Source of the DNA: Eledone cirrhosa
Taxonomy: Eukaryota
Direction: 5' to 3'
Assembly (NCBI GenBank): GCA_964016885.1
Contig: OZ024750.1
Span: 41,354,001-41,418,000 of the forward strand
DNA length: 64,000 nt
This document shows, piece after piece, positions 24,641 through 64,000 of this stretch. Position 1 is the first letter of the stretch; each line of letters begins with the position of its first letter. A program made the position numbers and the translations under genes. Under the pieces are notes generated by a model, which ran no database searches, was not told the DNA's origin, and saw only the letters and a program-made list of their open reading frames with translations.

Positions 24641-24959
24641 TTAATCTTCTTTTATTGATTCTGATAGGATGAATGACAAAGTTGACTACAGTGGAGTTTG
24701 AACTCAGAGTACAGAGAACCAGAAGAATTGTTAAGAACATTCAGCCTGCTACCTTAACAATTCTGGCAATTTGCTTCCAATATATAAAGAACTCACCTTC
24801 TAATGTTCTTTTATTCCTGTTTGTCAATGTTGATCAACAAATAACATATATTCTAATAACACAAATCTTCCTACTCTGATCTCAAGGGAGACTGATGCTA
24901 TCATACTATCAGCTGATCCTTCCTTAACACTTTATTTAGCTCTATTAACACTTTAGCAT

Positions 24960-25525: not shown

Positions 25526-25735
25526 CTCGTATACGAGAGACGTGTGTTGACGTGTGTGAACAAGCTCGGCTACCGAGTCGGATTTACTTACTCAAAAAGT
25601 GAGTTTTGATTAATTTTTTATACTGTAATATACGTTAACCCCTTGCCTTGGTCGTCAAACTTTGAGTTTATTTATTTTCGCCCCTTTTTGGGGCGAATTT
25701 TCCAGTTAAAAATTTATTACGGCAAACTAATAGAA

Positions 25736-27462
25736 ATGGACGGAATTTTCACATCTCATCCTAACGTGAAAGCCACGCCCCCTAAGAAAGGTGATACAGA
25801 GAAGCTAGAAGCACAAGGCTCTAAGTCTTCCCTCCTCACTTCTGCAAAAGAAACATGGAACACGGAATTAAAAGAAAAATTTGTAAAAATGGGTGAAAAC
25901 CCAGAAAGTCACATAAACGCAGACAAAAACAACAACGATAATAACAGCAATAGTCACAACACCAACCAAGGAAAAAATAACGATAACACCAAACAAAGCG
26001 AACCCACTACTGGTGCCTCCTTTGCACAGGCGGTCCGGAAAACACAAACCTGCAAGCAACTGGACATTACAACTCTGAGAGAAAAGATGAAGGAAGCGAA
26101 ACAGTATGTAACTTTCAAAGAAGGAGGAGACTTCACAATCACCTCCCCACAAGAAATCAAAAGAGACACGACGCTAAGAACGATATCTTTCAGAACAATT
26201 TCCAACATAACAAGGAAACCAACTCAATTATCCCAAAAAGAGATTGAGTTGGTCCTAAAAAATGTGTGGAGTGATATATCGTTCATACAAAAAGGGCCAC
26301 TCTATGGGAATATAACGGTCCTAATGAAGGATCAATTGACGGCCAGGAAATACTCTGTGGCACCAATTGTTTCCAAGCTACATACATTTTTCCCCACATA
26401 TTTAGGGAAAAGAACGCAGAAGATAAGGGTTTCCGGAATCCGGCCAAATGCATGCATTTCCTGGGTACTAACAGGATTTTTAGAAGACGAGGACGGAATC
26501 CTCTCAGTAGGAGAAGTCACCACAGACGTTTTCGGCGGTTTGAGCGTGGAGGTTCTGGTCCAAATGAAACCAGAACGAATAGCTAGAATACCACAGAGGG
26601 TGTCCCTCGATGGAGAAACATTTATATATATTTCAGCTGAGGGTAGGAGGCCCATATGTTACTACTGTTCAAGCAGGGGTCATCTAAGGGCTGCTTGTCC
26701 TCAATTGACAAAAAAAAAGGCTCTTTTGCCTACACCCCACACACCACCACCGCCACCACCACCACCACCACCACCACAACAACAACAAAAACAACACGGA
26801 AAAATAACACAAGACACGGCCCCACCCAAAACAACTCCCAAAACACACACAAATACAACAAAACCCCAAAATACACCACTACCCGACAGCACGGACGAGG
26901 GCCCAGCGGAAACGGCACCTAGTGACGAAGAGGGGGAACCCTTCCAACCTGTAAAAAGGAAAAAAAGAAAGCACCACTCGAACATAAACGAAACAAACAC
27001 ACAACCACCAACAAAAACAAAACAAACAGAACAAACAAAATCCGCCCCACCCCAAAACATAACACATACAACAAAACGTAAGCACACACAAGAACAACAA
27101 ACAAACACAACACAAATAAAACAGTATACATACATTAACACAAATAACAAAGAACTAGTAAAAACAATACACAAAGACCCTTTGGTGGAAACTGAAGTGA
27201 ATTCTTTGCAAGCGCGGCCAACAAACCGCATTTAAAAATGATAAGACTCCCAATGGACACCTATGCAAAACTAAGAGAGAACTTTCCTGAGGACGTGGGG
27301 AAAACATGTACTCGACCCTATAACCGCGTCCTCTTGAAACGTTTCCCCACCCACACCTCACCAAACACCCCCACTCCACCACAGAACAACACCCCACCAA
27401 ACAACCCCTCCAATACGCCCATGGATATTGTGCAACCTGCTCCTCAGGAGCCGAACAGGTAG
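25736..27462 (+). pseudogene. Tx1 ORF1 (CCHC zinc knuckle), frameshifted
   Basis: CYYCSSRGHLRAAC. GAAGTGAATTC versus GAAGGACAATTC in copy 3 (1-nt loss). Confidence 0.9.
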
Positions 27463-27483
27463 GTCCTTCCTCTTTTAACCAAC

Positions 27484-30400
27484 ATGGCTGATATAAGAGT
27501 TGGGTGTCTGAATGTACGTGGCCTGGGACTGTCTTGGAAACAAGGCAAACTTTTAAACGATCTCAGGTCGCATAGAATGGATGTAATGGCTATTTGCGAG
27601 TCCAGGATCAGCAGCGAGCACCAACTGGCGCCCCTCTTCGACGACTTTGAGATCTTCGCATCTCTCTGTCAACCGGGGGGTGGGGGTGGAGTTGTCGTTC
27701 TGCTGCGAAAACACCTGGGCCTCGCCATACAGAAGGTGCACCTGGACCCGGAGGGTCGACTGGTGGTTTTAGACGTCGGCAGTAGTGAAAGTGGAGCCCT
27801 TAGACTAATAGCTGTGTACGCCCCTTTTTGGGCAGCGCGGCCGGAATACTTCCAACGTCTGGAAACTTTTCTGGGAACGTCCCGCTCCTTGCTTTTAGTG
27901 GGGGACTGGAATGGTATCCTGGATGCACGTTGGGACTATGTAGGGGCATGTGCCAATAGAGGGGGGTGTAAAAGCCTCAAAAGGTTAATCGGCCGATTTG
28001 ACCTGGCCGATAGATATCGACTAGATTTTCCGACTGTACCACTATGGACGTGGACCAATCGCAGTGGAACATCTAGGTCGTACCTAGATAGGGTCCTAGT
28101 TAGAGAGAACGATAGGGACACATTTAGCTGTCCAAAAATGTTCATGGTTGACTATTCGGATCACAAGTTAGTGACCTGCATAGCCAACCTTGATAGAACC
28201 CATAGACAGGGACCCGGTTACTGGAAGCTGAACTTGTCCTTACCGAGAAGCAAAGCTTACAGTAAACGGATTAGCACGTTAGTTAAGCAGAGTTTGACAG
28301 GGGCAATTGTCAACAACAGGTGGTGGAGCTCTCTTAAGAGAGCAATTAGAATAGAATCGATAGGTTTTAGTCAAGAATTAGCAAGGGATAGGAACAAGAC
28401 GGAAAGGGAATTAGTAGATAGAGTAGAAGAGGCGATTAGGAGTGGCAATGTAGCCGGCGTGCTGGCATCAAGAATGGCCTTAGACCAGTTCTTTGAGGTG
28501 AAGCATGAAGGCTGCGTTGTCAGGAGTAAAATACGTGCTCTGGGTAATGAGGGAGCCAAAGCTGTGAGCTGGGCCCGAGTGACAGAGGCAAAAAGTGGGA
28601 ACAAGTCCACGATTCGGTCTTTGAAGGACCAGGATGGGCGTGTGATCCTTGAACCTGGGCAGATGTGTGCGGCCTTTCAGCGGCACTTTGCACGACTGTT
28701 CGAGAGGGGCGGCGCGCCGGGTGAGACTATGGATTTCAATCCATACCTCGACGGTCTGCCGCGCCTCTCGGACGCGGAGGCGAAGTCCTGCGAAAGGACG
28801 ATTTCTGCTGCTGAGATAGGGGCGGCGCTGAGCCAATGCGGCAAACGCAAATCCCCGGGTCTCGATGGTCTACCATACGAGCTATATGTAGCGATGCCGG
28901 ACTTGTTCTCCGATATCCTCGAAGCGGTCTACTGCAACTGGCAGCAGAACGGGAGAATTCCCAGTTCTGTGACCAAGGGCGTAGTTACGCTGGTGAGGAA
29001 GGATGAGAACAAGGGGGATGACATAAGTAACTTCAGACCCATAACTCTGCTAAATACAGAGTTAAAGATTTTGGCCAAGGTGTTAGCGAAGAGGTTGGCG
29101 CTTGTCGTTGGAAACCTGGTGGGAGAAGCGCAGACATGCGCAATCCCGTCCAGGTCCATTCACGACAATCTCCACCTTATGCGATACATCATAGAGAGGG
29201 TAGGGAATGAACCCGGCTTTGGTGGGGCCCTGATCAACTTGGATCAATCTAAAGCTTTCGATAGGGTTGACCATCGTTACCTGGATGCGGTGCTCGCGGC
29301 GGCAGGCTTCGGACCCGTTTTCAGGGGTTGGATTGCTGCGATGCACAGCAGCAACGTCTGCTCAAGGGTCAAGGTGAACGGCCACCTCTCGGAGCCGTTC
29401 CAAATCATGCGATCCATCCGACAGGGATGCCCTCTCTCCTCCCTACTGTATGTGCTGGCTCTTGAGCCACTACTGCGGAAGTTGGAGCGGTTGCAGGGCA
29501 TCCCTTTGGAACCGGGATTGCAGAAAGCGGCGTCGGCCTACGCCGATGACGTGACAGTAATGGTGTCGAAAACCTCGCAAATCGGTGAGATCGGCACCTT
29601 ACTGGAGGAATATGAAAGGTTTACAGGAGCCAAGCTGAACCGGGACAAGTCCGTCGGTTTGCAACTCGGAACATGAAAAGGCAAACCGATGCCCTCCAAC
29701 GACGTCGTCGGACGCTGGACGGAGGGCCCGGTGAAGCTGCTTGGGGTCTGGTTCGGACCAGACCTCCAGGTGGAGAAAAACTGGAACGAGGTAACGGCCA
29801 GGGTGTTTGCACTCACCCAGAAGTGGGCCCAGTGCAAACTATCCCTGAAAGGTCGAGCGGAGGTGGCGAATACTTATATAGCATCCGTCATCTACTACCG
29901 CTTGACCGTCGTGCCTTGCCCAGTGAAAAGACTCGCCAAAATGGAGTGCTCGCTGTTCCAATTTCTTTGGAACAAGCGGACCCCTTTGGTGAGGAGATCC
30001 ATCTGCTGTCAACACCATTCGAAAGGAGGGCTGGGGATGCCGTGGCTACAGATGCGTAAACACGCATTAAGGCTACGGCACCTCCAGGTATTCCTCACCG
30101 GTCAACCGGTGTGGGCCCCGTTTGTGAGGCGAGCCTTTCCCAGACTCGTCTCGCTCACCGAGCTGCAATCCTGGGTCAAGCAAAGACCGAGAAAAGTGGG
30201 CGACTGGCACATTGAATGTGCCCAGGCGCTCACGGCCCTCTGGAAAGCGGACCCGGCAATCAGTGGAGACTCCACCTCGACATTCTATAGAGGGTTGGTA
30301 CGCAGCAGGTGCGACGATGCTCTCGGAGAAGCTCTAGGCATGGAGGAAGATGAACTGGCCAGTCTGTTCGGTAGGACGTTTGGCCCTGGACCGATGGACA

Positions 30401-30921
30401 ACTTCCAAAAGTCCCTGGCTTGGCAGTGCTACCGAGGGGCTCTACCCGTTCGAGACAAGCTCCACAGGCATGGGAGCCTGGGTAGAGATCCTTTGAATAA
30501 GATCTGTCCGAGATGCGTGCATGATGACGAAACCGTTGCGCACGCATTCGTACACTGCCCAGGCATTGCTGACCTGTGGGGCTATGTGGAACGACTACTG
30601 TCGAGGGTGGGACCAATCCGGTTGACCACCGAGTCCATTGTCACGATCAAACCGCCTCCCCCTTTCAAAAACGAAGGAGAGGCGGTTTTTCTCTGTGTGG
30701 TAGCCATGGCTAAAGAAGTTGTATGGTGGACGAGGCTGAAAGGGCTGAGGTCAGACACCTTTCTCTCCGGCCAACAACTGGTCCCCTTTTTCAAATACCA
30801 TTTTAAAAGAAGGATCAGAATGGAGAGAGAGGTGCTCTACCCCAGCAAGTTTTATGAAAGGTGGGTGAAAGTAGGGAGAATGGCCAGAGTGAATGGGTCT
30901 TCTCTCTATATCAGCCTGTAG
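27484..30921 (+). pseudogene. Tx1 ORF2 (APE-RT-CCHC) with one premature stop
   Basis: Colinear with 38992-42429; Trp codon changed to TGA at 29674. Confidence 0.92.
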
Positions 30922-31492
30922 GTGAAAGAAGAGGAAAAAGAGGAGACGAGGGAAGCACCTACTCTTTGTGCTCCTGAGGAGAAGGGTTGCACATTTTTTC
31001 CGGGGTGTGTGCGACGCATGTTAATGCCCCCTCCCTATTGAGGACTTCGTTTGTTGTTGTTATTTCATTGTTATATTTTTGTACTCGTTAATTATATGTA
31101 AACTTCCCCCCTTGTATCTGTCCCTACCTTTTGTGCCCTAGTGGCAAATAAAGAAACCACTCTATATATACTATTGTATTTTCACAGTAAAAGCTTTACC
31201 TCACATAACATTTACATTACTCTATATATACTATTGTATTTTCACTGTAAAGGCTTTACTTCACATAATATCTCACATAACATCTCGTATACGAGAGACG
31301 TGTGTTGACGTGTGTGAACAAGCTCGGCTACCGAGTCGGATTTACTTACTCAAAAGTGAGTTTTGATTAATTTTTTATACTGTAATATACGTTAACCCCT
31401 TGCCTTGGTCGTCAAACCTTGAGTTTATTTATTTTCGCCCCTTTTTGGGGCGAATTTTCCAGTTAAAAACTTATTACGGCAAACTAATAGAA

Positions 31493-33208
31493 ATGGACGG
31501 AATTTTCACATCTCATCCTAACGTGAAAGCCACGCCCCCTAAGAAAGGTGATACAGAGAAGCTAGAAGCACAAGGCTCTAAGTCTTCCCTCCTCACTTCT
31601 GCAAAAGAAACATGGAACACGGAATTAAAAGAAAAATTTGTAAAAATGGGTGAAAACCCAGAAAGTCACATAAACGCAGACAAAAACAACAACGACAATA
31701 ACAGCAATAGTCACAACACCAATCAAGGAAAAAATAACGATAACACCAAACAAAGCGAACCCACTACTGGTGCCTCCTTTGCACAGGCGGTCCGGAAAAC
31801 ACAAACCTGCAAGCAACTGGACATTACAACTCTGAGAGAAAAGATGAAGGAAGCGAAACAGTATGTAACTTTCAAAGAAGGAGGAGACTTCACAATCACC
31901 TCCCCACAAGAAATCAAAAGAGACACGACGCTAAGAACGATATCTTTCAGAACAATTTCCAACATAACAAGGAAACCAGCTCAATTATCCCAAAAAGAGA
32001 TTGAGTTGGTCCTAAAAAATGTGTGGAGTGATATATCGTTCATACAAAAAGGGCCACTCTATGGGAATATAACGGTCCTAATGAAGGATCAATTGACGGC
32101 CAGGAAATACTCTGTGGCGCCAATTGTTTCCAAGCTACATACATTTTCCCCCACATATTTAGGGAAAAGAACGCAGAAAATAAGGGTCTCCGGAATCCGG
32201 CCAAATGCATGCATTTCCTGGGTACTAACAGGATTTTTAGAAGACGAGGACGGAATCCTCTCAGTAGGAGAAGTCACCACAGATGTTTTCGGCGGTTTGA
32301 GCGTGGAGGTTCTGGTCCAAATGAGACCAGAACGAATAGCTAGAATACCACAGAGGGTGTCCCTCGATGGAGAAACATTTATATACATTTCAGCCGAGGG
32401 TAGGAGGCCCATATGTTACTACTGTTCAAGCAGGGGTCATCTAAGGGCTGCTTGTCCTCAATTGACAAAAAAAAAAGCTCTTTTGCCTACACCCCACACA
32501 CCACCACCGCCACCACCACCACCACAACAACAAAAACAACACGGAAAAATAACACAAGACACGGCCCCACCCAAAACAACTCCCAAAACACACACAAATA
32601 CAACAAAACCCCAAAATACACCACTACCCGACAGCACGGACGAGGACCCAGCTGAAACGGCACCTAGTGACGAAGAGGGGGAACCCTTCCAACCTGTAAA
32701 AAGGAAAAAAAGAAAGCACCACTCGAACATAAACGAAACAAACACACAACCACCAACAAAAACAAAACAAACAGAACAAACAAAATCCGCCCCACCCCAA
32801 AACATAACACATACAACAAAACGTAAGCACACACAAGAACAACAAACAAACACAACACAAATAAAACAGTATACATACATTAACACAAATAACAAAGAAC
32901 TAGTAAAAACAATACACAAAGACCCTTCGGTGGAAACTGAAGGGCAATTCTTTGCAAGCGCGGCCAACAAACCGCATTTAAAAATGATAAGACTCCCAAT
33001 GGACACCTATGCAAAACTAAGAGAGAACTTTCCTGAGGACGTGGGGAAAACATGTACTCGACCCTATAACCGCGTCCTCTTGAAACGTTTCCCCACCCAC
33101 ACCTCACCAAACACCCCCACTCCACCACAGAACAACACCCCACCAAACAACCCCTCCAATACGCCCATGGATATTGTGCAACCTGCTCCTCAGGAGCCGA
33201 ACAGGTAG
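31493..33208 (+). CDS. Tx1 ORF1 protein, intact (571 aa from first ATG)
   Basis: ATG of MDGIF; CX2CX4HX4C knuckle; Pro/Thr/Gln-rich C-terminus; KRKKRK basic motif. Confidence 0.85.
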   Translation: MDGIFTSHPNVKATPPKKGDTEKLEAQGSKSSLLTSAKETWNTELKEKFVKMGENPESHINADKNNNDNNSNSHNTNQGKNNDNTKQSEPTTGASFAQAVRKTQTCKQLDITTLREKMKEAKQYVTFKEGGDFTITSPQEIKRDTTLRTISFRTISNITRKPAQLSQKEIELVLKNVWSDISFIQKGPLYGNITVLMKDQLTARKYSVAPIVSKLHTFSPTYLGKRTQKIRVSGIRPNACISWVLTGFLEDEDGILSVGEVTTDVFGGLSVEVLVQMRPERIARIPQRVSLDGETFIYISAEGRRPICYYCSSRGHLRAACPQLTKKKALLPTPHTPPPPPPPPQQQKQHGKITQDTAPPKTTPKTHTNTTKPQNTPLPDSTDEDPAETAPSDEEGEPFQPVKRKKRKHHSNINETNTQPPTKTKQTEQTKSAPPQNITHTTKRKHTQEQQTNTTQIKQYTYINTNNKELVKTIHKDPSVETEGQFFASAANKPHLKMIRLPMDTYAKLRENFPEDVGKTCTRPYNRVLLKRFPTHTSPNTPTPPQNNTPPNNPSNTPMDIVQPAPQEPNR

Positions 33209-33229
33209 GTCCTTCCTCTTTTAACCAAC

Positions 33230-36200
33230 ATGGCTGATATAAGAGTTGGGTGTCTGAATGTACGCGGCCTGGGACTGTCTTGGAAACAAGGCAAACTTTT
33301 AAACGATCTCAGGTCGCATAGAATGGATGTAATGGCTATTTGCGAGTCCAGGATCAGCAGCGAGCACCAACTGGCGCCCCTCTTCGACGACTTTGAGATC
33401 TTCGCATCTCTCTGTCAACCGGGGGGTGGGGGTGGAGTTGTCGTTCTGCTGCGAAAACACCTGGGCCTCGCCATACAGAAGGTGCACCTGGACCCGGAGG
33501 GTCGACTGGTGGTTTTAGACGTCGGCAGTAGTGAAAGTGGAGCCCTTAAACTAATAGCTGTGTACGCCCCTTTTTGGGCAGCGCGGCCGGAATACTTCCA
33601 ATGTCTGAAAACTTTTCTGGGAACGTCCCGCTCCTTGCTTTTAGTGGGGGACTGGAATGGTATCCTGGATGCACGTTGGGACTATGTAGGGGCATGTGCC
33701 AATAGAGGGGGGTGTAAAAGCCTCAAAAGGTTAATCGGCCGATTTGACCTGGCCAATAGATATCGACTAGATTTTCCGACTGTACCACTATGGACGTGGA
33801 CCAATCGCAGTGGAACATCTAGGTCGTACCTAGATAGGGTCCTAGTTAGAGAGAACGATAGGGACACATTTAGCTGTCCAAAAATGTTCATGGTTGACTA
33901 TTCGGATCACAAGTTAGTGACCTGCATAGCCAACCTTGATAGAACCCATAGACAGGGACCCGGTTACTGGAAGCTGAACTTGTCCTTACCGAGAAGCAAA
34001 GCTTACAGTAAACGGATTAGCACGTTAGTTAAGCAGAGTTTGACAGGGGCAATTGTCAACAACAGGTGGTGGAGCTCTCTTAAGAGAGCAATTAGAATAG
34101 AATCGATAGGTTTTAGTCAAGAATTAGCAAGGGATAGGAACAAGACGGAAAGGGAATTAGTAGATAGAGTAGAAGAGGCGATTAGGAGTGGCAATGTAGC
34201 CGGCGTGCTGGCATCAAGAATGGCCTTAGACCAGTTCTTTGAGGTGAAGCATGAAGGCTGCGTTGTCAGGAGTAAAATACGTGCTCTGGGTAATGAGGGA
34301 GCCAAAGCTGTGAGCTGGGCCCGAGTGACAGAGGCAAAAAGTGGGAACAAGTCCACGATTCGGTCTTTGAAGGACCAGGATGGGCGTGTGATCCTTGAAC
34401 CTGGGCAGATGTGTGCGGCCTTTCAGCGGCACTTTGCACGACTGTTCGAGAGGGGCGGCGCGCCGGGTGAGACTATGGATTTCAATCCATACCTCGACGG
34501 TCTGCCGCACCTCTCGGACGCGGAGGCGAAGTCCTGCGAAAGGACGATTTCAGCTGCTGAGATAGGGGCGGCGCTGAGCCAATGCGGCAAACGCAAATCC
34601 CCGGGTCTCGATGGTCTACCATACGAGCTATATGTAGCGATGCCGGACTTGTTCTCTGATATCCTCGAAGCGGTCTACTGCAACTGGCAGCAGAATGGGA
34701 GAATTCCCAGTTCTGTGAACAAGGGCGTAGTTACGCTGGTGAGGAAGGATGAGAACAAGGGGATGACATAAGTAACTTCAGGCCCATAACTCTGCTAAAT
34801 ACAGAGTTAAAGATTTTGGCCAAGGTCTTAGCGAAGAGGTTGGCGCTTGTCGTTGGAAACCTGGTGGGAGAAGCGCAGACATGCGCAATCCCGTCCAGGT
34901 CCATTCACGACAATCTCCACCTTATGCGATACATCATAGAGAGGGTAGGGGCCCTGATCAACTTGGATCAATCTAAAGCTTTCGATAGGGTTGACCATCG
35001 TTACCTGGATGCGGTGCTCGCGGCGGCAGGCTTCGGACCCGTTTTCAGGGGTTGGATTGCTGCGATGCACAGCAGCAACGTCTGCTCAAGGGTCAAGGTG
35101 AATGGCCACCTCTCGGAGCCGTTCCAAATCATGCGATCCATCCGACAGGGATGCCCTCTCTCCTCACTACTGTATGTGCTGGCTCCTGAGCCACTACTGC
35201 GGAAGTTGTAGCGGTTGCAGGGCATCCCTTTGGAACCGGGATTGCAGAAAGCGGCGTCGGCCTACGCCGATGACGTGACAGTAATGGTGTCGAAAACCTC
35301 GCAAATCGGTGAGATCGGCACCTTACTGGAGGAATATGAAAGGTTTACAGGAGCCAAGCTGAACCGGGACAAGTCCGTCGGTTTGCAACTCGGAACATAG
35401 AGAGGCAAACCGATGTCCTCCAACGACGTCGTCGGACGCTGGACGGAGGGCCCGGTGAAGCTGCTTGGGGTCTGGTTCGGACCAGACCTCCAGTTGGAGA
35501 AAAACTGGAACGAAGTAACGGCCAGGGTGTTTGCACTCACCCAGAAGTGGGCCCAGTGCAAACTATCCCTGAAAGGTCGAGCGGAGGTGGCGAATACTTA
35601 TATAGCATCCGTCATCTACTACCGCTTGACCGTCGTGCCTTGCCCAGTGAAAAGACTCGCCAAAATGGAGTGCACGCTGTTCCAATTTCTTTGGAACAAG
35701 CGGACCCCTTTGGTGAGGAGATCCATCTGCTGTCAACACCCTTCGAAAGGAGGGCTGGGGATGCCGTGGCTACAGATGCGTAAACACGCATTAAGGCTAC
35801 TGCACCTCCAGGTATTCCTCACCGGTCAACCGGTGTGGGCCCCGTTTGTGAGGCGAGCCTTTCCCAAACTCATCTCGCTCACCGAGCTGCAATCCTGGGT
35901 CAAGCAAAGACCGAGAAAAGTGGGCGACTGGCACATTGAATGTGCGCAGGTGCTCACGGCCCTCTGGAAAGCGGACCCGGCAATCAGTGAAGACTCCACC
36001 TCGACATTCTATAGAGGGTTGGTACGCAGCAGGTGCGACGATGCTCTCGGAGAAGCTCTAGGCATGGAGGAAGATGAACTGGCCAGTCTGTTCGGTAGGA
36101 CGTTTGGCCCTGGACCGATGGACAACTTCCAAAAGTCCCTGGCTTGGCAGTGCTACCGAGGGGCTCTACCCGTTCGAGACAAGCTCCACAGGCATGGGAG

Positions 36201-36645
36201 CCTGGGTAGAGATCCTTTGAATAAGATCTGTCCGAGATGCGTGCATGATGACGAAACCGTTGCGCACGCATTCGTACACTGCCCAGGCATTGCTGACCTG
36301 TGGGGCTATGTGGAACGACTACTGTCGAGGGTGGGACCAATCCGGTTGACCACCGAGTCCATTGTCACGATCAAACCGCCTCCCCCTTTCAAAAACGAAG
36401 GAGAGGCGGTTTTTCTCTGTGTGGTAGCCATGGCTAAAGAAGTTGTATGGTGGACGAGGCTGAAAGGGCTGAGGTCAGACACCTTTCTCTCCGGCCAACA
36501 ACTGGTCCCCTTTTTCAAATACCATTTTAAAAGAAGGATCAGAATGGAGAGAGAGGTGCTCTACCCCAGCAAGTTTTATGAAAGGTGGGTGAAAGTAGGT
36601 AGAATGGCCAGAGTGAATGGGTCTTCTCTCTATATCAGCCTGTAG
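33230..36645 (+). pseudogene. Tx1 ORF2, disrupted
   Basis: Fragments 33230-34771, 34816-35211, 35215-35400 and 35413-36645 are colinear with the intact ORF2. Confidence 0.92.
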
Positions 36646-37227
36646 GTGAAAGAAGAGGAAAAAGAGGAGACGAGGGAAGCACCTACTCTTTGTGCTCCTG
36701 AGGAGAAGGGTTGCACATTTTTTCCGGGGTGTGTGCGACCCATGTTAATGCCCCCTCCCTATTGAGGACTTCGTTTGTTGTTGTTATTTCATTGTTATAT
36801 TTTTGTACTCGTTAATTATATGTAAACTTCCTCCCTTGTATCTGTCCCTACCTTTTGTGCCCTAGTGGCAAATAAAGAAACTACTCTATATATACTATTG
36901 TATTTTCACAGTAAAGGCTTTACCTCAATATCTCACATAACATTTACATTTACTTTATATATACTATTATATTTTCACAGTAAAGGCTTTACCTCACATA
37001 ATATCTCACATAACATCTCGTATACGAGAGACGTGTGTTGACGTGTGTGAACAAGCTCGGCTACCGAGTCGGATTTACTTACTCAAAAAGTGAGTTTTGA
37101 TTAATTTTTTTATACTGTAATATACGTTAACCCCTTGCCTTGGTCGTCAAACTTTGAGTTTATTTATTTTCGCCCCTTTTTGGGGCGAATTTTCCAGTTA
37201 AAAATTTATTACGGCAAACTAATAGAA

Positions 37228-38970
37228 ATGGACGGAATTTTCACATCTCATCCTAACGTGAAAGCCACGCCCCCTAAGAAAGGTGATACAGAGAAGCTAG
37301 AAGCACAAGGCTCTAAGTCTTCCCTCCTGACTTCTGCAAAAGAAACATGGAACACGGAATTAAAAGAAAAATTTGAAAAAATGGGTGAAAACCCAGAAAG
37401 TCACATAAACGCAGACAAAAACAACAACGACAATAACAGCAATAGTCACAACACCAACCAAGGAAAAAATAACGATAACACCAAACAAAGCGAACCCACT
37501 ACTGGTACCTCCTTTGCACAGGCGGTCCGGAAAACACAAACCTGCAAGCAACTGGACATTACAACTCTGAGAGAAAAGATGAAGGAAGCGAAACAGTATG
37601 TAACTTTCAAAGAAGGAGGAGACTTCACAATCACCTCCCCACAAGAAATCAAAAGAGACACGACGCTAAGAACGATATCTTTCAGAACAATTTCCAACAT
37701 AACAAGGAAACCAACTCAATTATCCCAAAAAGAGATTGAGCTGGTCCTAAAAAATGTGTGGAGTGATATATCGTTCATACAAAAAGGGCCACTCTATGGG
37801 AATATAACGGTCCTAATGAAGGATCAATTGACGGCCAGGAAATACTCTGTGGCACCAATTGTTTCCAAGCTACATACATTTTTCCCCACATATTTAGGGA
37901 AAAGAACGCAGAAGATAAGGGTCTCCGGAATCCGGCCAAATGCATGCATTTCCTGGGTACTAACAGGGTTTTTAGAAGACGAGGACGGAATCCTCTCAGT
38001 AGGAGAAGTCACCACAGACGTTTTCGGCGGTTTGAGCGTGGAGGTTCTGGTCCAAATGAGACCAGAACGAATCGCTAGAATACCACAGAGGGTGTCCCTC
38101 GATGGAGAAACATTTATATATATTTCAGCCGAGGGTAGGAGGCCCATATGTTACTACTGTTCAAGCAGGGGTCATCTAAAGGCTGCTTGTCCTCAATTGA
38201 CAAAAAAAAAGGCTCTTTTGCCTACACCCCACACACCACCACCGCCACCACCACCACCACCACCACCTCCACCACCACCACCACAACAACAACAAAAACA
38301 ACAGGGAAAAATAACACAAGACACGGCCCCACCCAAAACAACTCCCAAAACACACACAAATACAACAAAACCCCAAAATACACCACTACCCGACAGCACG
38401 GACGAGGACCCAGCGGAAACGGCACCTAGTGACGAAGAGGGGGAACCCTTCCAACCTGTAAAAAGGAAAAAAAGAAAGCACCACTCGAACATAAACGAAA
38501 CAAACACACAACCACCAACAAAAACAAAACAAACAGAACAAACAAAATCCGCCCCACCCCAAAACATAACACATACAACAAAACGTAAGCACACACAAGA
38601 ACAACAAACAAACACAACACAAATAAAACAGTATACATACATTAACACAAATAACAAAGAACTAGTAAAAACAATACACAAAGACCCTTTGGTGGAAACT
38701 GAAGGACAATTCTTTGCAAGCGCGGCCAACAAACCGCATTTAAAAATGATAAGACTCCCAATGGACACCTATGCAAAACTAAGAGAGAACTTTCCTGAGG
38801 ACGTGGGGAAAACATGTACTCGACCCTATAACCGCGTCCTCTTGAAACGTTTCCCCACCCACACCTCACCAAACACCCCCACTCCACCACAGAACAACAC
38901 CCCACCAAACAACCCCTCCAATACGCCCATGGATATTGTGCAACCTGCTCCTCAGGAGCCGAACAGGTAG
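37228..38970 (+). CDS. Tx1 ORF1 nucleic-acid-binding protein (580 aa from first ATG), CCHC knuckle
   Basis: CYYCSSRGHLKAAC and a poly-Pro tract. The ORF-track start at 37135 is a TTG. Confidence 0.9.
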   Translation: MDGIFTSHPNVKATPPKKGDTEKLEAQGSKSSLLTSAKETWNTELKEKFEKMGENPESHINADKNNNDNNSNSHNTNQGKNNDNTKQSEPTTGTSFAQAVRKTQTCKQLDITTLREKMKEAKQYVTFKEGGDFTITSPQEIKRDTTLRTISFRTISNITRKPTQLSQKEIELVLKNVWSDISFIQKGPLYGNITVLMKDQLTARKYSVAPIVSKLHTFFPTYLGKRTQKIRVSGIRPNACISWVLTGFLEDEDGILSVGEVTTDVFGGLSVEVLVQMRPERIARIPQRVSLDGETFIYISAEGRRPICYYCSSRGHLKAACPQLTKKKALLPTPHTPPPPPPPPPPPPPPPPQQQQKQQGKITQDTAPPKTTPKTHTNTTKPQNTPLPDSTDEDPAETAPSDEEGEPFQPVKRKKRKHHSNINETNTQPPTKTKQTEQTKSAPPQNITHTTKRKHTQEQQTNTTQIKQYTYINTNNKELVKTIHKDPLVETEGQFFASAANKPHLKMIRLPMDTYAKLRENFPEDVGKTCTRPYNRVLLKRFPTHTSPNTPTPPQNNTPPNNPSNTPMDIVQPAPQEPNR

Positions 38971-38991
38971 GTCCTTCCTCTTTTAACCAAC

Positions 38992-41900
38992 ATGGCTGAT
39001 ATAAGAGTTGGGTGTCTGAATGTACGTGGCCTGGGACTGTCTTGGAAACAAGGCAAACTTTTAAACGATCTCAGGTCGCATAGAATGGATGTAATGGCTA
39101 TTTGCGAGTCCATGATCAGCAGCGAGCACCAACTGGCGCCCCTCTTCGACGACTTTGAGATCTTCGCATCTCTCTGTCAACCGGGGGGTGGGGGTGGAGT
39201 TGTCGTTCTGCTGCGAAAACACCTGGGCCTCGCCATACAGAAGGTGCACCTGGACCCGGAGGGTCGACTGGTGGTTTTAGACGTCGGCAGTAGTGAAAGT
39301 GGAGCCCTTAGACTAATAGCTGTGTACGCCCCTTTTTGGGCAGCGCGGCCGGAATACTTCCAACGTCTGGAAACTTTTCTGGGAACGTCCCGCTCCTTGC
39401 TTTTAGTGGGGGACTGGAATGGTATCCTGGATGCACGTTGGGACTATGTAGGGGCATGTGCCAATAGAGGGGGGTGTAAAAGCCTCAAAAGGTTAATCGG
39501 CCGATTTGACCTGGCCGATAGATATCGACTAGATTTTCCGACTGTACCACTATGGACGTGGACCAATCGCAGTGGAACATCTAGGTCGTACCTAGATAGG
39601 GTCCTAGTTAGAGAGAACGATAGGGACACATTTAGCTGTCCAAAAATGTTCATGGTTGACTATTCGGATCACAAGTTAGTGACCTGCATAGCCAACCTTG
39701 ATAGAACCCATAGACAGGGACCCGGTTACTGGAAGCTGAACTTGTCCTTACCGAGAAGCAAAGCTTACAGTAAACGGATTAGCACGTTAGTTAAGCAGAG
39801 TTTGACAGGGGCAATTGTCAACAACAGGTGGTGGAGCTCTCTTAAGAGAGCAATTAGAATAGAATCGATAGGTTTTAGTCAAGAATTAGCAAGGGATAGG
39901 AACAAGACGGAAAGGGAATTAGTAGATAGAGTAGAAGAGGCGATTAGGAGTGGCAATGTAGCCGGCGTGCTGGCATCAAGAATGGCCTTAGACCAGTTCT
40001 TTGAGGTGAAGCATGAAGGCTGCGTTGTCAGGAGTAAAATACGTGCTCTGGGTAATGAGGGAGCCAAAGCTGTGAGCTGGGCCCGAGTGACAGAGGCAAA
40101 AAGTGGGAACAAGTCCACGATTCGGTCTTTGAAGGACCAGGATGGGCGTGTGATCCTTGAACCTGGGCAGATGTGTGCGGCCTTTCAGCGGCACTTTGCA
40201 CGACTGTTCGAGAGGGGCGGCGCGCCGGGTGAGACTATGGATTTCAATCCATACCTCGACGGTCTGCCGCGCCTCTCGGACGCGGAGGCGAAGTCCTGCG
40301 AAAGGACGATTTCAGCTGCTGAGATAGGGGCGGCGCTGAGCCAATGCGGCAAACGCAAATCCCCGGGTCTCGATGGTCTACCATACGAGCTATATGTAGC
40401 GATGCCGGACTTGTTCTCCGATATCCTCGAAGCGGTCTACTGCAACTGGCAGCAGAACGGGAGAATTCCCAGTTCTGTGACCAAGGGCGTAGTTACGCTG
40501 GTGAGGAAGGATGAGAACAAGGGGGATGACATAAGTAACTTCAGGCCCATAACTCTGCTAAATACAGAGTTAAAGATTTTGGCCAAGGTGTTAGCGAAGA
40601 GGTTGGCGCTTGTCGTTGGAAACCTGGTGGGAGAAGCGCAGACATGCGCAATCCCGTCCAGGTCCATTCACGACAATCTCCACCTTATGCGATACATCAT
40701 AGAGAGGGTAGGGAATGAACCCGGCTTTGGTGGGGCCCTGATCAACTTGGATCAATCTAAAGCTTTCGATAGGGTTGACCATCGTTACCTGGATGCGGTG
40801 CTCGCGGCGGCAGGCTTCGGACCCGTTTTCAGGGGTTGGATTGCTGCGATGCACAGCAGCAACGTCTGCTCAAGGGTCAAGGTGAACGGCCACCTCTCGG
40901 AGCCGTTCCAAATCATGCGATCCATCCGACAGGGATGCCCTCTCTCCTCCCTACTGTATGTGCTGGCTCTTGAGCCACTACTGCGGAAGTTGGAGCGGTT
41001 GCAGGGCATCCCTTTGGAACCAGGATTGCAGAAAGCGGCGTCGGCCTACGCCGATGACGTGACAGTAATGGTGTCGAAAACCTCGCAAATCGGTGAGATC
41101 GGCACCTTACTGGAGGAATATGAAAGGTTTACAGGAGCCAAGCTGAACCGGGACAAGTCCGTCGGTTTGCAACTCGGAACATGGAGAGGCAAACCGATGC
41201 CCTCCAACGACGTCGTCGGACGCTGGACGGAGGGCCCGGTGAAGCTGCTTGGGGTCTGGTTCGGACCAGACCTCCAGGTGGAGAAAAACTGGAACGAGGT
41301 AACGGCCAGGGTGTTTGCACTCACCCAGAAGTGGGCCCAGTGCAAACTATCCCTGAAAGGTCGAGCGGAGGTGGCGAATACTTATATAGCATCCGTCATC
41401 TACTACCGCTTGACCGTCGTGCCTTGCCCAGTGAAAAGACTCGCCAAAATGGAGTGCGCGCTGTTCCAATTTCTTTGGAACAAGCGGACCCCTTTGGTGA
41501 GGAGATCCATCTGCTGTCAACACCCTTCGAAAGGAGGGCTGGGGATGCCGTGGCTACAGATGCGTAAACACGCATTAAGGCTACGGCACCTCCAGGTATT
41601 CCTCACCGGTCAACCGGTGTGGGCCCCGTTTGTGAGGCGAGCCTTTCCCAGACTCGTCTCGCTCACCGAGCTGCAATCCTGGGTCAAGCAAAGACCGAGA
41701 AAAGTGGGCGACTGGCACATTGAATGTGCCCAGGCGCTCACGGCCCTCTGGAAAGCGGACCCGGCAATCAGTGGAGACTCTACCTCGACATTCTATAGAG
41801 GGTTGGTACGTAGCAGGTACGACGATGCTCTCGGAAAAGCTCTAGGCATGGAGGAAGATGAACTGGCCAGTCTGTTCGGTAGGACGTTTGGCCCTGGACC

Positions 41901-42429
41901 GATGGACAACTTCCAAAAGTCCCTGGCTTGGCAGTGCTACCGAGGGGCTCTACCCGTTCGAGACAAGCTCCACAGGCATGGGAGCCTGGGTAGAGATCCT
42001 TTGAATAAGATCTGTCCGAGATGCGTGCATGATGACGAAACCGTTGCGCACGCATTCGTACACTGCCCAGGCATTGCTGACCTGTGGGGCTATGTGGAAC
42101 GACTACTGTCGAGGGTGGGACCAATCCGGTTGACCACCGAGTCCATTGTCACGATCAAACCGCCTCCCCCTTTCAAAAACGAAGGAGAGGCGGTTTTTCT
42201 CTGTGTGGTAGCCATGGCTAAAGAAGTTGTATGGTGGACGAGGCTGAAAGGGCTGAGGTCAGACACCTTTCTCTCCGGCCAACAACTGGTCCCCTTTTTC
42301 AAATACCATTTTAAAAGAAGGATCAGAATGGAGAGAGAGGTGCTCTACCCCAGCAAGTTTTATGAAAGGTGGGTGAAAGTAGGGAGAATGGCCAGAGTGA
42401 ATGGGTCTTCTCTCTATATCAGCCTGTAG
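38992..42429 (+). CDS. Tx1 ORF2: apurinic-like endonuclease, reverse transcriptase and C-terminal Cys/His motif (1145 aa)
   Basis: APE motifs LNVRGL, GDWN, YLDR, SDHK; GPGYWKLN linker of L1/Tx1; KSPGLDG, FRPITLLN, DQSKAFDRV, RQGCPLS, YADD; CPRC...ETVAHAFVHC. Confidence 0.95.
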   Translation: MADIRVGCLNVRGLGLSWKQGKLLNDLRSHRMDVMAICESMISSEHQLAPLFDDFEIFASLCQPGGGGGVVVLLRKHLGLAIQKVHLDPEGRLVVLDVGSSESGALRLIAVYAPFWAARPEYFQRLETFLGTSRSLLLVGDWNGILDARWDYVGACANRGGCKSLKRLIGRFDLADRYRLDFPTVPLWTWTNRSGTSRSYLDRVLVRENDRDTFSCPKMFMVDYSDHKLVTCIANLDRTHRQGPGYWKLNLSLPRSKAYSKRISTLVKQSLTGAIVNNRWWSSLKRAIRIESIGFSQELARDRNKTERELVDRVEEAIRSGNVAGVLASRMALDQFFEVKHEGCVVRSKIRALGNEGAKAVSWARVTEAKSGNKSTIRSLKDQDGRVILEPGQMCAAFQRHFARLFERGGAPGETMDFNPYLDGLPRLSDAEAKSCERTISAAEIGAALSQCGKRKSPGLDGLPYELYVAMPDLFSDILEAVYCNWQQNGRIPSSVTKGVVTLVRKDENKGDDISNFRPITLLNTELKILAKVLAKRLALVVGNLVGEAQTCAIPSRSIHDNLHLMRYIIERVGNEPGFGGALINLDQSKAFDRVDHRYLDAVLAAAGFGPVFRGWIAAMHSSNVCSRVKVNGHLSEPFQIMRSIRQGCPLSSLLYVLALEPLLRKLERLQGIPLEPGLQKAASAYADDVTVMVSKTSQIGEIGTLLEEYERFTGAKLNRDKSVGLQLGTWRGKPMPSNDVVGRWTEGPVKLLGVWFGPDLQVEKNWNEVTARVFALTQKWAQCKLSLKGRAEVANTYIASVIYYRLTVVPCPVKRLAKMECALFQFLWNKRTPLVRRSICCQHPSKGGLGMPWLQMRKHALRLRHLQVFLTGQPVWAPFVRRAFPRLVSLTELQSWVKQRPRKVGDWHIECAQALTALWKADPAISGDSTSTFYRGLVRSRYDDALGKALGMEEDELASLFGRTFGPGPMDNFQKSLAWQCYRGALPVRDKLHRHGSLGRDPLNKICPRCVHDDETVAHAFVHCPGIADLWGYVERLLSRVGPIRLTTESIVTIKPPPPFKNEGEAVFLCVVAMAKEVVWWTRLKGLRSDTFLSGQQLVPFFKYHFKRRIRMEREVLYPSKFYERWVKVGRMARVNGSSLYISL

Positions 42430-42665
42430 GTGAAAGAAGAGGAAAAAGAGGAGACGAGGGAAGCACCTACTCTTTGTGCTCCTGAGGAGAAGGGTTACAC
42501 ATTTTTTCCGGGGTGTGTGCGACCCATGTTAATGCCCCCTCCCTATTGAGGACTTCGTTTGTTGTTGTTATTTCATTGTTATATTTTTGTACTCGTTAAT
42601 TATATGTAAACTTCCCCCCTTGTATCTGTCCCTACCTTTTGTGCCCTAGTGGCAAATAAAGAAAC

Positions 42666-43005
42666 CACTCTATATATACTATTGTATTTTCACAGTAAAG
42701 ACTTTACCTCACATAACATCTCACATAACATTTACATTTACTTTATATATACTATTGTATTTTCACAGTAAAGGCTTTACCTCACATAATATCTCACATA
42801 ACATTTACATTACTCTATATATACTATTGTATTTTCACAGTAAAGACTTTACCTCACATAACATCTCACATAACATTTACATTTACTTTATATATACTAT
42901 TGTATTTTCACAGTAAAGGCTTTACCTCACATAATATCTCACATAACATTTACATTACTCTATATATACTATTGTATTTTCATGGTAAAGACTTTACCTC
43001 ACATA
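42666..43005 (+). repeat. MITE-derived 72/73-bp units downstream of copy 3
   Basis: Same unit as 24960-25525. Confidence 0.9.
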
Positions 43006-43746
43006 ATATCAAATCTATGAAAATTTGATATTATTTATTTTGAGAACAATACCTTAACATCAGTATGAGCGGCCGGTTTGAACAGAAAGAGGTGGAAAAA
43101 TTCTGGTTGGATATGGCCAGTTTAAATACATCCCCGCTTTCCTCACATCAGTTGTTATATGGTATAAAGTACAAATTACTTAATATAAAACTGGTTAGAA
43201 GGTTTTTACCCAGTTAAGTACTTAACCAAATATATATATATATGTATGTATAAGTAGGATAACTGAATATGTTTATTGACCTAACTACTTGTCATTCATA
43301 TGCAGCAGAGTCCATATTGTAACAAATATTTTACTAATGTTGATAGGGTTTTTCTTTTCTTTTCATTTTTTTGTAATTTTGTTGTATTTTTTATCGTTTT
43401 TGAATGTTATCTAGAAAAAGATCTAAAAGGAATTAATGAAATATTTTCCATCTTCAGATTCTAATATTGTTTAGAGGTGCTTCATCAAAGAAGTGAAGAC
43501 ATGTTTTGTAAGATACCAGTCAAATATAGTCTTCTGTCATCTTTAAACGACAGTTTCTTCAAATTTTTTTCTTTCCCTTTTCTTTCAAATTTATATTTTG
43601 GATATAACAAAATTATAAAAATAAACTTTTTTCTTGTTTAAATCTGGATTTTTTGGTACATGTAGAAAGTCATTGCGTAATTTTTATAGTTATATTTTAT
43701 TTATTTTGTTTAAAATTTGCTTTTTTTATTTTTACTTTCACTTCAT

Positions 43747-60614: not shown

Positions 60615-62357
60615 CTACCTGTTCGGCTCCTGAGGAGCAGGTTGCACAATATCCATGGGCGTATTGGAGGGGTTGTTTGGTGGGGTGTTGTTCTGTGGTG
60701 GAGTGGGGGTGTTTGGTGAGGTGTGGGTGGGGAAACGTTTCAAGAGGACGCGGTTATAGGGTCGAGTACATGTTTTCCCCACGTCCTCAGGAAAGTTCTC
60801 TCTTAGTTTTGCATAGGTGTCCATTGGGAGTCTTATCATTTTTAAATGCGGTTTGTTGGCCGCGCTTGCAAAGAATTGTCCTTCAGTTTCCACCAAAGGG
60901 TCTTTGTGTATTGTTTTTACTAGTTCTTTGTTATTTGTGTTAATGTATGTATACTGTTTTATTTGTGTTGTGTTTGTTTGTTGTTCTTGTGTGTGCTTAC
61001 GTTTTGTTGTATGTGTTATGTTTTGGGGTGGGGCGGATTTTGTTTGTTCTGTTTGTTTTGTTTTTGTTGGTGGTTGTGTGTTTGTTTCGTTTATGTTCGA
61101 GTGGTGCTTTCTTTTTTTCCTTTTTACAGGTTGGAAGGGTTCCCCCTCTTCGTCACTAGGTGCCGTTTCCGCTGGGTCCTCGTCCGTGCTGTCGGGTAGT
61201 GGTGTATTTTGGGGTTTTGTTGTATTTGTGTGTGTTTTGGGAGTTGTTTTGGGTGGGGCCGTGTCTTGTGTTATTTTTCCCTGTTGTTTTTGTTGTTGTT
61301 GTGGTGGTGGTGGTGGAGGTGGTGGTGGTGGTGGTGGTGGCGGTGGTGGTGTGTGGGGTGTAGGCAAAAGAGCCTTTTTTTTTGTCAATTGAGGACAAGC
61401 AGCCCTTAGATGACCCCTGCTTGAACAGTAGTAACATATGGGCCTCCTACCCTCGGCTGAAATATATATAAATGTTTCTCCATCGAGGGACACCCTCTGT
61501 GGTATTCTAGCGATTCGTTCTGGTCTCATTTGGACCAGAACCTCCACGCTCAAACCGCCGAAAACGTCTGTGGTGACTTCTCCTACTGAGAGGATTCCGT
61601 CCTCGTCTTCTAAAAACCCTGTTAGTACCCAGGAAATGCATGCATTTGGCCGGATTCCGGAGACCCTTATCTTCTGCGTTCTTTTCCCTAAATATGTGGG
61701 GAAAAATGTATGTAGCTTGGAAACAATTGGTGCCACAGAGTATTTCCTGGCCGTCAATTGATCCTTCATTAGGACCGTTATATTCCCATAGAGTGGCCCT
61801 TTTTGTATGAACGATATATCACTCCACACATTTTTTAGGACCAGCTCAATCTCTTTTTGGGATAATTGAGTTGGTTTCCTTGTTATGTTGGAAATTGTTC
61901 TGAAAGATATCGTTCTTAGCGTCGTGTCTCTTTTGATTTCTTGTGGGGAGGTGATTGTGAAGTCTCCTCCTTCTTTGAAAGTTACATACTGTTTCGCTTC
62001 CTTCATCTTTTCTCTCAGAGTTGTAATGTCCAGTTGCTTGCAGGTTTGTGTTTTCCGGACCGCCTGTGCAAAGGAGGTACCAGTAGTGGGTTCGCTTTGT
62101 TTGGTGTTATCGTTATTTTTTCCTTGGTTGGTGTTGTGACTATTGCTGTTATTGTCGTTGTTGTTTTTGTCTGCGTTTATGTGACTTTCTGGGTTTTCAT
62201 CCATTTTTTCAAATTTTTCTTTTAATTCCGTGTTCCATGTTTCTTTTGCAGAAGTCAGGAGGGAAGACTTAGAGCCTTGTGCTTCTAGCTTCTCTGTATC
62301 ACCTTTCTTAGGGGGCGTGGCTTTCACGTTAGGATGAGATGTGAAAATTCCGTCCAT
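60615..62357 (-). CDS. Tx1 ORF1, intact (580 aa)
   Basis: Nearly identical to 37228-38970. Confidence 0.88.
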   Translation of the reverse strand: MDGIFTSHPNVKATPPKKGDTEKLEAQGSKSSLLTSAKETWNTELKEKFEKMDENPESHINADKNNNDNNSNSHNTNQGKNNDNTKQSEPTTGTSFAQAVRKTQTCKQLDITTLREKMKEAKQYVTFKEGGDFTITSPQEIKRDTTLRTISFRTISNITRKPTQLSQKEIELVLKNVWSDISFIQKGPLYGNITVLMKDQLTARKYSVAPIVSKLHTFFPTYLGKRTQKIRVSGIRPNACISWVLTGFLEDEDGILSVGEVTTDVFGGLSVEVLVQMRPERIARIPQRVSLDGETFIYISAEGRRPICYYCSSRGHLRAACPQLTKKKALLPTPHTPPPPPPPPPPPPPPPPQQQQKQQGKITQDTAPPKTTPKTHTNTTKPQNTPLPDSTDEDPAETAPSDEEGEPFQPVKRKKRKHHSNINETNTQPPTKTKQTEQTKSAPPQNITHTTKRKHTQEQQTNTTQIKQYTYINTNNKELVKTIHKDPLVETEGQFFASAANKPHLKMIRLPMDTYAKLRENFPEDVGKTCTRPYNRVLLKRFPTHTSPNTPTPPQNNTPPNNPSNTPMDIVQPAPQEPNR

Positions 62358-62633
62358 TTCTATTAGTTTGCCGTAATAAATTTTTAACTGGAAAATTCGC
62401 CCCAAAAAGGGGCGAAAATAAATAAACTCAAAGTTTGACGACCAAGGCAAGGGGTTAACGTATATTACAGTATAAAAAATTAATCAAAACTCACTTTTTG
62501 AGTAAGTAAATCCGACTCGGTAGCCGAGCTTGTTCACACACGTCAACACACGTCTCTCGTATACGAGATGTTATGTGAGATATTATGTGAGGCAAAGCCT
62601 TTACTGTGAAAATACAATAGTATATATACAGTG

Positions 62634-64000
62634 GTTTCTTTATTTGCCACTAGGGTACAAAAGGTAGGGACAGATACAAGGGGGGAAGTTTACATATAAT
62701 TAACGAGTACAAAAATATAACAATGAAATAACAACAACAAACGAAGTCCTCAATAGGGAGGGGGCATTAACATGGGTCGCACACACCCCGGAAAAAATGT
62801 GCAACCCTTCTCCTCAGGAGCACAAAGAGTAGGTGCTTCCCTCGTCTCCTCTTTTTCCTCTTCTTTCACCTACAGGCTGATATAGAGAGAAGACCCATTC
62901 ACTCTGGCCATTCTCCCTACTTTCATCCACCTTTCATAAAACTTGCTGGGGTAGAGCACCTCTCTCTCCATTCTGATCCTTCTTTTAAAATGGTATTTGA
63001 AAAAGAGGACCAGTTGTTGGCCGGAGAGAAAGGTGTCTGACTTCAGCCCTTTCAGCCTCGTCCACCATACAACTTCTTTAGCCATGGCTATCACACAGAG
63101 AAAAACCGCCTCTCCTTCGTTTTTGAAAGGGGGAGGCGGTTTGATCGTGACAATGGACTCGGTGGTCAACCGGATTGGTCCCACCCTCGACAGTAGTCGT
63201 TCCACATAGCCCCACAGGTCAGCAATGCCTGGGCAGTGTACGAATGCGTGCGCAACGGTTTCGTCATCATGCACGCATCTCGGACAGATCTTATTCAAAG
63301 GATCTCTACCCAGGCTCCCATGCCTGTGGAGCTTGTCTCGAACGGGTAGAGCCCCTCGGTAGCACTGCCAAGCCAGGGACTTTTGGAAGTTGTCCATCGG
63401 TCCAGGGCCAAACGTCCTACCGAACAGACTGGCCAGTTCATCTTCCTCCATGCCTAGAGCTTCTCCGAGAGCATCGTCGCACCTGCTGCGTACCAACCCT
63501 CTATAGAATGTCGAGGTGGAGTCTCCACTGATTGCCGGGTCCGCTTTCCAGAGGGCCGTGAGCGCCTGGGCACATTCAATGTGCCAGTCGCCCACTTTTC
63601 TCGGTCTTTGCTTGACCCAGGATTGCAGCTCGGTGAGCGAGACGAGTCTGGGAAAGGCTCGCCTCACAAACGGGGCCCACACCGGTTGACCGGTGAGGAA
63701 TACCTGGAGGTGCCGTAGCCTTAATGCGTGTTTACGCATCTGTAGCCACGGCATCCCCAGCCCTCCTTTCGAAGGGTGTTGACAGCAGATGGATCTCCTC
63801 ACCAAAGGGGTCCGCTTGTTCCAAAGAAATTGGAACAGCGCGCACTCCATTTTGGCGAGGCTTTTCACTGGGCAAGGCACGACGGTCAAGCGGTAGTAGA
63901 TGACGGATGCTATATAAGTATTCGCCACCTCCGCTCGACCTTTCAGGGATAGTTTGCACTGGGCCCACTTCTGGGTGAGTGCAAACACCCTGGCCGTTAC
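62634..64000 (-). mobile_element. Tx1 copy 5, 3' part (continues beyond the window)
   Basis: ORF2 C-terminus open at 62870-64000; same 3'UTR and junction; separated from copy 4 by 66 bp of target repeat. Confidence 0.93.

Follow-up and report, generated by a model that had tools for sequence, protein, structure and literature searches.

An L1/Tx1-like LINE inserted at one phase of a MITE tandem repeat in Eledone cirrhosa, with six to seven target bases lost at each insertion

The window analysed is a stretch of 64,000 nucleotides of Eledone cirrhosa DNA (contig OZ024750.1) and contains five copies of a 5.6-kb LINE, which differ from one another by 0.27-1.1%. Three copies (c1-c3) lie head to tail on the plus strand, spanning 25526-42665, and two (c4 and c5) lie head to tail on the minus strand from 56920 to the window end (Table 1). 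The most diverged copy is c2, with 38 private substitutions, while c4 is closest to c3 (0.27%; 15 differences in 5649 nt). The element has a 5' UTR of 211 nt and, in c3, a 3' UTR of 237 nt that holds a single AATAAA. Searches with blastn and tblastn revealed no truncated pieces of the element in the window outside the five copies. The element is young. Sequencing artefact is an unlikely source of the variation, as 51 of the 65 private changes are transitions, and a segmental duplication joining c3 and c4 was rejected as their similarity stops inside the surrounding MITE.

The zinc knuckle of ORF1 was found by motif and is the only one; its Pfam score of 17.5 is below the cut-off of 20.8. The poly-proline tract of the same protein is encoded by (ACC)n, the length of which differs among copies, and no homologue of ORF1 (residues 95-335) was found among 1180 candidates. 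A zinc knuckle in ORF1 is typical of the Tx1 clade. The ORF2 protein has Pfam matches above the cut-off to Exo_endo_phos (22-227) and RVT_1 (512-756), with the catalytic motifs present, and its C-terminal zf-RVT lies at 976-1032 with a CCHC at 1008. The best PDB match is L1 ORF2 (E 9e-53, residues 4-857), while R2 is matched at 3e-23 over the RT portion only. Among the matches listed the closest database protein has 70% identity, and a group at ~40% comes next; the homologue lists for ORF2 (75 and 150 entries) contain no family name, and a tree of 61 relatives, all of them unnamed, is uninformative on clade. The features of the L1 group (L1/Tx1) are present, namely two ORFs, an N-terminal APE followed by the RT, a C-terminal zf-RVT/CCHC and greater similarity to L1 than to R2, as is the sequence-specific insertion into a repeat that marks the Tx1 clade (five of five copies). 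The sequence thus points to an L1/Tx1-like APE-RT LINE, where 'Tx1-like' is based on architecture and target specificity and not on phylogeny.

The target, which is not a free satellite, is a tandem unit of 60/72 bp within a MITE ending in TTAA. The unit corresponds to the left 60 or 72 bp, tandemly duplicated, of a 228-bp MITE that has TIRs of the sequence TTAACCCTTTAGCATT, with CCC...GGG termini inside the TTAA; a literature search for these end motifs gave no relevant match and one unrelated grapevine paper. In addition to the two LINE-bearing hosts (B and C), the window contains two plain copies and an empty array (MITE A). The ends of MITE A are TCAA... (11846) and ...TTGA (12309), a symmetry of the inverted and not the direct-repeat type, while the other copies have TTAA. 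Array unit starts are filled at 5 of 29 positions and empty at 24. Across the three host MITEs the units diverge by 3.5-3.9%, and within arrays by 3.0-4.0%, whereas the tails of the host MITEs differ by 14-18%, those of the two LINE-bearing hosts showing 83.8% identity across 74 aligned nt. In array B the first unit has differences at 7 of 50 positions. Units two apart often share variants (B3/B5, D3/B15 and B14/B16), and the local sharing of variants by A2 with A-end and by D3 with B-end indicates that local duplication also occurs.

The DNA of the window is animal-like and rich in microsatellites and minisatellites, and its short repeats may be of an octopus-like kind. Other homogeneous minisatellites, with units of 35, 51, 63, 64 and 101 bp, are located at 15387-19487, 22280-23534, 4767-5389, 48576-49201 and 55059-55664; none of these arrays contains the LINE, and some may likewise have arisen as duplications inside short mobile elements. 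A 71-bp repeat region present as an inverted pair (about 1336-1530 and 2152-2346) suggests a small fold-back element ~1 kb long. A separate RT frame of 464 aa with an inserted PHD-like finger (12721-14115, plus strand) is probably a fragment of another LINE, which we take to be RTE-like.

Table 1 Coordinates of the LINE copies, their reading frames and junctions, and the MITEs of the window.
Feature	Position	Strand	Description
Plain MITE, second copy	8413..8641	+	Empty
MITE A	11846..12309	+	Empty five-unit array of 60-bp units
Plain 228-bp MITE (TTAACCCTTTAGCATT...AATGCTAAAGGGTTAA)	20846..21073	+	Single site, empty
Host MITE B, left end and upstream array	24945..25525	+	Units: one divergent 60-bp, six 72/73-bp, one 66-bp
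LINE copy c1	25526..31157	+	Full length; ORF1 frameshifted, ORF2 with stop
Spacer c1-c2	31158..31283	+	126 bp (60+66); one intact empty site between units
LINE copy c2	31284..36881	+	Full length; ORF2 broken
Spacer c2-c3	36882..37016	+	135 bp (69+66); first base T
LINE copy c3	37017..42665	+	Full length; ORF1 and ORF2 both open
c3 ORF1	37228..38970	+	580 aa; CCHC zinc knuckle at 308-321; poly-proline tract
c3 ORF2	38992..42429	+	1145 aa; APE endonuclease, RT (YADD), zf-RVT, CCHC
AATAAA of c3	42655..42660	+	5 nt short of element end
Host MITE B, downstream array and tail	42666..43130	+	X-Y-X-Y, 73/72/73/72
Host MITE C, downstream array and tail	56420..56919	-	Five 72-bp units; (TTC)n run cuts tail
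LINE copy c4	56920..62567	-	Full length; single stop in ORF2
Palindrome over c4 5' junction	62555..62568	.	Perfect, 14 bp; one target base and 13 element bases
Spacer c5 (3' end)-c4 (5' end)	62568..62633	-	66 bp; 72-bp unit minus last 6 nt
LINE copy c5	62634..64000	-	3' 1.37 kb only; 5' end beyond window edge

All five copies are in one phase and one orientation of the 72-bp unit and none is found elsewhere in the window; by simple arithmetic, the chance of this is (1/144)^4 if the insertions are independent. The four visible 5' ends are full length and identical, preceded by ...CTCACATAACAT and starting CTCGTATACGAG, and they remain identical for 68 nt, first differing at element position 69. 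The five 3' ends all read AATAAA-GAAAC followed by array sequence, with no A run. The 3' junction is CACT in c1, c3, c4 and c5 and TACT in c2, and none of the 24 array units away from the 3' junctions starts with C. An empty site reads ...ACATAACAT TTACAT TACTCT... and a filled site ...ACATAACAT, the element and (C/T)ACTCT...; TTACAT is absent at every filled site (TTACATT if the C is reckoned as part of the element). The initial annotation had recorded the uniform full-length 5' ends, the tailless 3' ends 5 nt past AATAAA, the CACT at four of five 3' junctions and the three spacer lengths, and all of these were borne out. It had also described the spacers as one or two target units. All three are whole units minus the same 6 nt (TTACAT), which had gone unremarked, and only one of the three is a single unit. 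In that 66-bp spacer the first base is the junction C, and there are private substitutions at unit positions 5 and 41.

The 14-bp palindrome at the c4 5' junction is also present over the other 5' junctions (25525-25538, 31283-31296 and 37016-37029). Three further short hairpins are found in the 5' UTR past the palindrome and have no Rfam match. In three of the four 5' flanks there is a substitution at -24 or -26 (unit positions 41-43, e.g. 62593).

In a 72-bp array the loss of TTACAT can be read as a 6-bp deletion or as a 66-bp duplication. If the target had been duplicated, the 65 nt before and after a copy would have been identical at insertion. The flank pairs of c1, c2, c3 and c4 differ by 3, 3, 4 and 2 events (12 in total), compared with 1.5 in total expected from the private changes of the copies (P=7e-8; per-copy P of 0.003, 0.06, 1e-5 and 0.02), and are similar to random unit pairs, for which the mean is 2.3 differences in array B (102 pairs) and 2.0 in array C (14 pairs). 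This comparison assumes that the flanks mutate at the rate of the element, and the units differ by 3-4%, hence are older or faster-changing. The unit upstream of c3 is of the Y type and the downstream run is X-Y-X-Y, in which the first X equals the second X apart from the junction base; c3 occupies a native Y/X boundary minus six bases, and the intact X-Y-X-Y run makes it difficult to suppose that the units were fully scrambled after its insertion. Likewise, the unit downstream of c1 is of the 60-bp type and the upstream unit of the 72-bp type. The ~65-bp target duplication put forward in the initial annotation was rejected on the flank variants and the X-Y-X-Y pattern, with only c4 (2 differences, P=0.02) borderline.

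Each insertion replaces TTACAT(T), with 6-7 bp lost, and so uses up a site and creates none. The suggestion that every insertion leaves a new site and thereby drives head-to-tail arrays does not agree with this loss or with the 24 empty boundaries, which indicate that the 'arrays' are neighbouring pre-existing sites that become filled. Filled sites in array B are not significantly clustered (P=0.12). The same mode of deletion in the Drosophila element R1A is accompanied by few or no tandems, as described in PMC2718515.

Our analysis, which covers five insertions in two loci, favours, with a probability of roughly 0.55, a LINE RNA with short target tags at both ends as the best mechanism for these insertions. 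The element would insert by target-primed reverse transcription at one phase of the MITE tandem repeat. Cleavage of an mRNA usually takes place 10-30 nt past AATAAA and, as the AATAAA is 5 nt from the element end, is expected inside the next target unit; the mRNA would be cleaved 5-25 nt inside the downstream unit and would thus end in target sequence before any poly(A). At the start of the unit the endonuclease would nick the bottom strand, where the RNA tag would anneal, and copying would begin at the element boundary, which would account for the absence of an A-tail, the fixed 3' end and the donor-derived C. The TACT of c2 may represent a case where the target base wins over the donor C. 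The transcript would begin a few to about 35 nt upstream, within the array, and the end of the cDNA would anneal to matching upstream sequence at the new site with the loss of the 6 unpaired target bases, such that finished insertions would be full length and precise. Head-to-tail copies would arise by the filling of adjoining pre-existing unit boundaries.

Neither the 5' nor the 3' end of the element matches the target beyond 5-6 nt, so pairing-based priming would need a read-through tag; L1 priming is described as depending on, or favouring, terminal pairing (PMC3649969). Four identical 5' junctions with the same 6-nt loss are the outcome to be expected of a cDNA that ends in upstream target sequence and anneals. 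The proposal has a precedent in the melanogaster-type R1A, an element with an APE endonuclease for which integration by target-tagged RNA has been proposed: a precise 9-bp deletion without junction variation is reported in 75% of its full-length insertions, 7-28 nt of upstream 28S are found on its off-target copies, and its tandems are rare (PMC2718515). No off-target insertions of the present element are found in the window. Read-through RNA with target sequence at both ends, the other possibility raised in the initial annotation, is plausible, though inferred, and any tag copied into DNA is shorter than about 38 nt, since the flanks differ by then. The array-native variants kept in the downstream flanks are consistent with tagged RNA but are not a test of it.

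The flanks of c1 and c2 have in common a T at -24 that is found in 0 of 24 other units compared. This one site is the sole sequence evidence for a 5' tag, and it can be accounted for just as well by conversion or by the local history of the array. Variants at unit positions 40-44 are present in three of four 5' flanks compared with 2 of 22 (P=0.014, or P=0.057 with c1 and c2 counted once), a post hoc hint of an excess near a possible TATA-driven start. TATATATA is located at unit positions 6-13, and it is a speculation that it could start transcription ~30 nt before the element in this AT-rich DNA.

An alternative to the doubly tagged RNA, and one we consider unlikely, is precise insertion without an upstream tag, where an internal promoter starts at +1 and 3' read-through may or may not occur. 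The top strand would be nicked 6-7 nt upstream of the bottom nick, giving a 5' overhang, and the 5' join would be fixed by the terminal palindrome or by microhomology of 1 nt. Staggered cuts with a 5' overhang are described as yielding target deletions (PMC6895275), target truncations are reported for SINEU-2, which is thought to be mobilised by Tx1 elements (PMC4494074), the palindrome does span the 5' junctions and the 211-nt 5' UTR could house a promoter. However, full-length 5' junctions formed without annealing usually vary, those of R2 and ancestral R1 having extra nucleotides or variable deletions (PMC2718515), whereas all four are identical here. Extended pairing of the upstream flank with the 5' end of the element is at chance level: a fold-back of the two gave z=-3.1 for 280 nt, yet shuffled flanks (212 and 179 of 1000) and random flanks (249 and 189 of 1000) did as well. 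The 3' UTR is no more structured than its shuffles, 85 of 100 of which fold as well, and the window contains no Rfam ribozyme match at the gathering level, only two sub-threshold matches near the 5' end that are at chance level.

Copying at the DNA level is slightly less probable again and would have one founder insertion propagated among homologous arrays through gene conversion or unequal exchange, with the identical junctions being one event inherited repeatedly. It would explain the full length, the common junctions and the common C at once, units equally alike between and within loci imply that the arrays exchange sequence somehow, and R1 dimers are described as expanding by unequal exchange, tandems of transposable elements from double insertion and unequal exchange being known (PMC5932611). 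The adjoining copies c1 and c2 share a haplotype over the first 2.1 kb only (9 of 10 informative sites, P=9e-4) in addition to the -24 T, which could stem from conversion or unequal exchange between neighbours, and it is mainly for this pair that the explanation is kept. The c1/c2 and c3/c4 haplotypes are confined to positions 1-2100 (5' UTR, ORF1 and the start of ORF2), and c3 and c4 differ by 0.10% in these 5' 2.1 kb and by 0.37% in the remainder.

Against DNA-level copying, the junctions are identical in two separate host MITEs on opposite strands, and the nearest relative of c3 is not the adjoining copy but c4, on the other strand and in the other host MITE. The flanks of different copies part within 24-38 nt upstream; downstream, a first difference appears by +36 in all 10 pairs, the shared flank ends by +36 in 8 of 10, and 8 of 10 have at least one internal difference by +36 as well as two differences by +52. 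The number of private changes is 12 in c1 and 38 in c2 (P=3e-4), and the three spacers are all unlike. Synonymous changes among the copies are in excess, at 32 of 69 compared with 20.9 expected (P=0.003; 15 of 26 in ORF1, P=0.002, and 17 of 43 in ORF2, P=0.15), as expected if the copies passed through active sources. By far the weakest explanation, and largely refuted, is a 66-bp TSD, in which a top-strand nick 66 nt downstream would mimic a 6-bp deletion and leave a reusable half-site, c4 having inserted at the c5 3' junction: the spacer between c5 and c4 measures exactly 66 bp and, like the unit that follows c4, starts with C, a 126-bp TSD is reported for R9 (PMC6895275) and TSD-separated tandem insertions are known for R1 and SINEU-3, but all four testable flank pairs differ and the units on the two sides of c3, and of c1, are of different types.

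The Tx1L element has as its target an internal repeat of the DNA transposon Tx1D and makes a 23-bp TSD. The present insertions differ in having a 6-7-bp deletion in place of that short duplication, and in their host, a 228-bp MITE with a 60/72-bp unit. The two systems have in common an L1/Tx1-type APE-RT element at one sequence inside a non-autonomous DNA transposon, Tx1L being described from Tx1D of Xenopus (PMC1950540, PMC1919474). The element behaves like the Tx1L/Tx1D composite but is not a member of it. The crocodilian families Tx1-Mar and Tx1-9_AMi are reported to prefer Mariner-N4 and Harbinger elements, and SINEU forms tandems around its TSD with target duplications and truncations and sometimes target-derived 5' extensions (PMC4494074). 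The preference for non-autonomous DNA transposons, the tandem insertions and the altered targets are points of likeness; differences are, in that account, a weaker site preference, frequent 5' truncation, the poly(A) of SINEU and tandems that sandwich a 16-bp TSD.

With R1A, described in PMC2718515, the element shares a precise target deletion (6-7 bp here, 9 bp there) and an invariant full-length 5' junction, identical in four of four copies here. R1A differs in belonging to the R1 clade and targeting 28S rDNA, for which there is no Rfam match in the window, whereas the present protein is L1-like and its target a MITE repeat; R1A in addition gives rise to truncated copies that have TSDs and to rearranged junctions, neither of which is seen among the five copies. 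For R2, an upstream 28S tag on the RNA is linked to full-length insertion and R2Bm deletes 2 bp, but R2 has a single ORF, a restriction-like endonuclease and a ribozyme-processed co-transcript (PMC6895275), in contrast to the two ORFs and APE of the present element and the lack of an Rfam ribozyme match. The identical long direct repeats that the R9 TSD would predict are absent, given the 12 differences in four flank pairs. The MITE resembles DTC84 of the clam Donax in its variable internal tandem array but has other termini, and the portion of that description drawn on here does not mention a targeting LINE (PMC3879986). An annotation of Octopus vulgaris lists 13 recently active L1-Tx1 families and gives, in the portion cited, no junction anatomy (PMC13282606).

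LINEs of the Tx1 type with DNA transposons as targets and an APE-type element, R1A, that makes precise deletions via target-tagged RNA are thus already known separately. The literature searched, which took in neither Repbase nor most subscription papers, yielded no account of a fixed target deletion made by an L1/Tx1-type element in a MITE array, and the novelty of both features together in an L1-like lineage is to that extent a weak claim.

The greater similarity of the units than of the tails among host MITEs suggests that units have been moved or homogenised between loci by some process, for which the ordinary answer is gene conversion. It is conceivable, though doubtful, that the LINE lineage spreads its own target via read-through RNAs that carry several downstream units. 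Priming of such an RNA at a distal unit would on occasion lead to its being copied into old MITEs, whether or not the copying reached the element, and near-identical arrays would be seeded in this way, e.g. the empty array at 11846-12309. Multi-unit transfer would account for the divergence of the units, of the tails and of the first unit of array B, and ordinary gene conversion between arrays accounts for the same numbers. If true, it would revive the idea of a self-spreading target in another form, not as a duplication per insertion.

Second-strand priming and 5' joining in APE LINEs are described as still open (PMC6895275). The combination of features in this element would represent an independent origin of homology-guided, all-full-length integration. 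The presence of both open ORFs in c3, together with a short defined target, makes the mechanism open to direct testing, and insertion that is both precise and full length is of interest to genome engineering.
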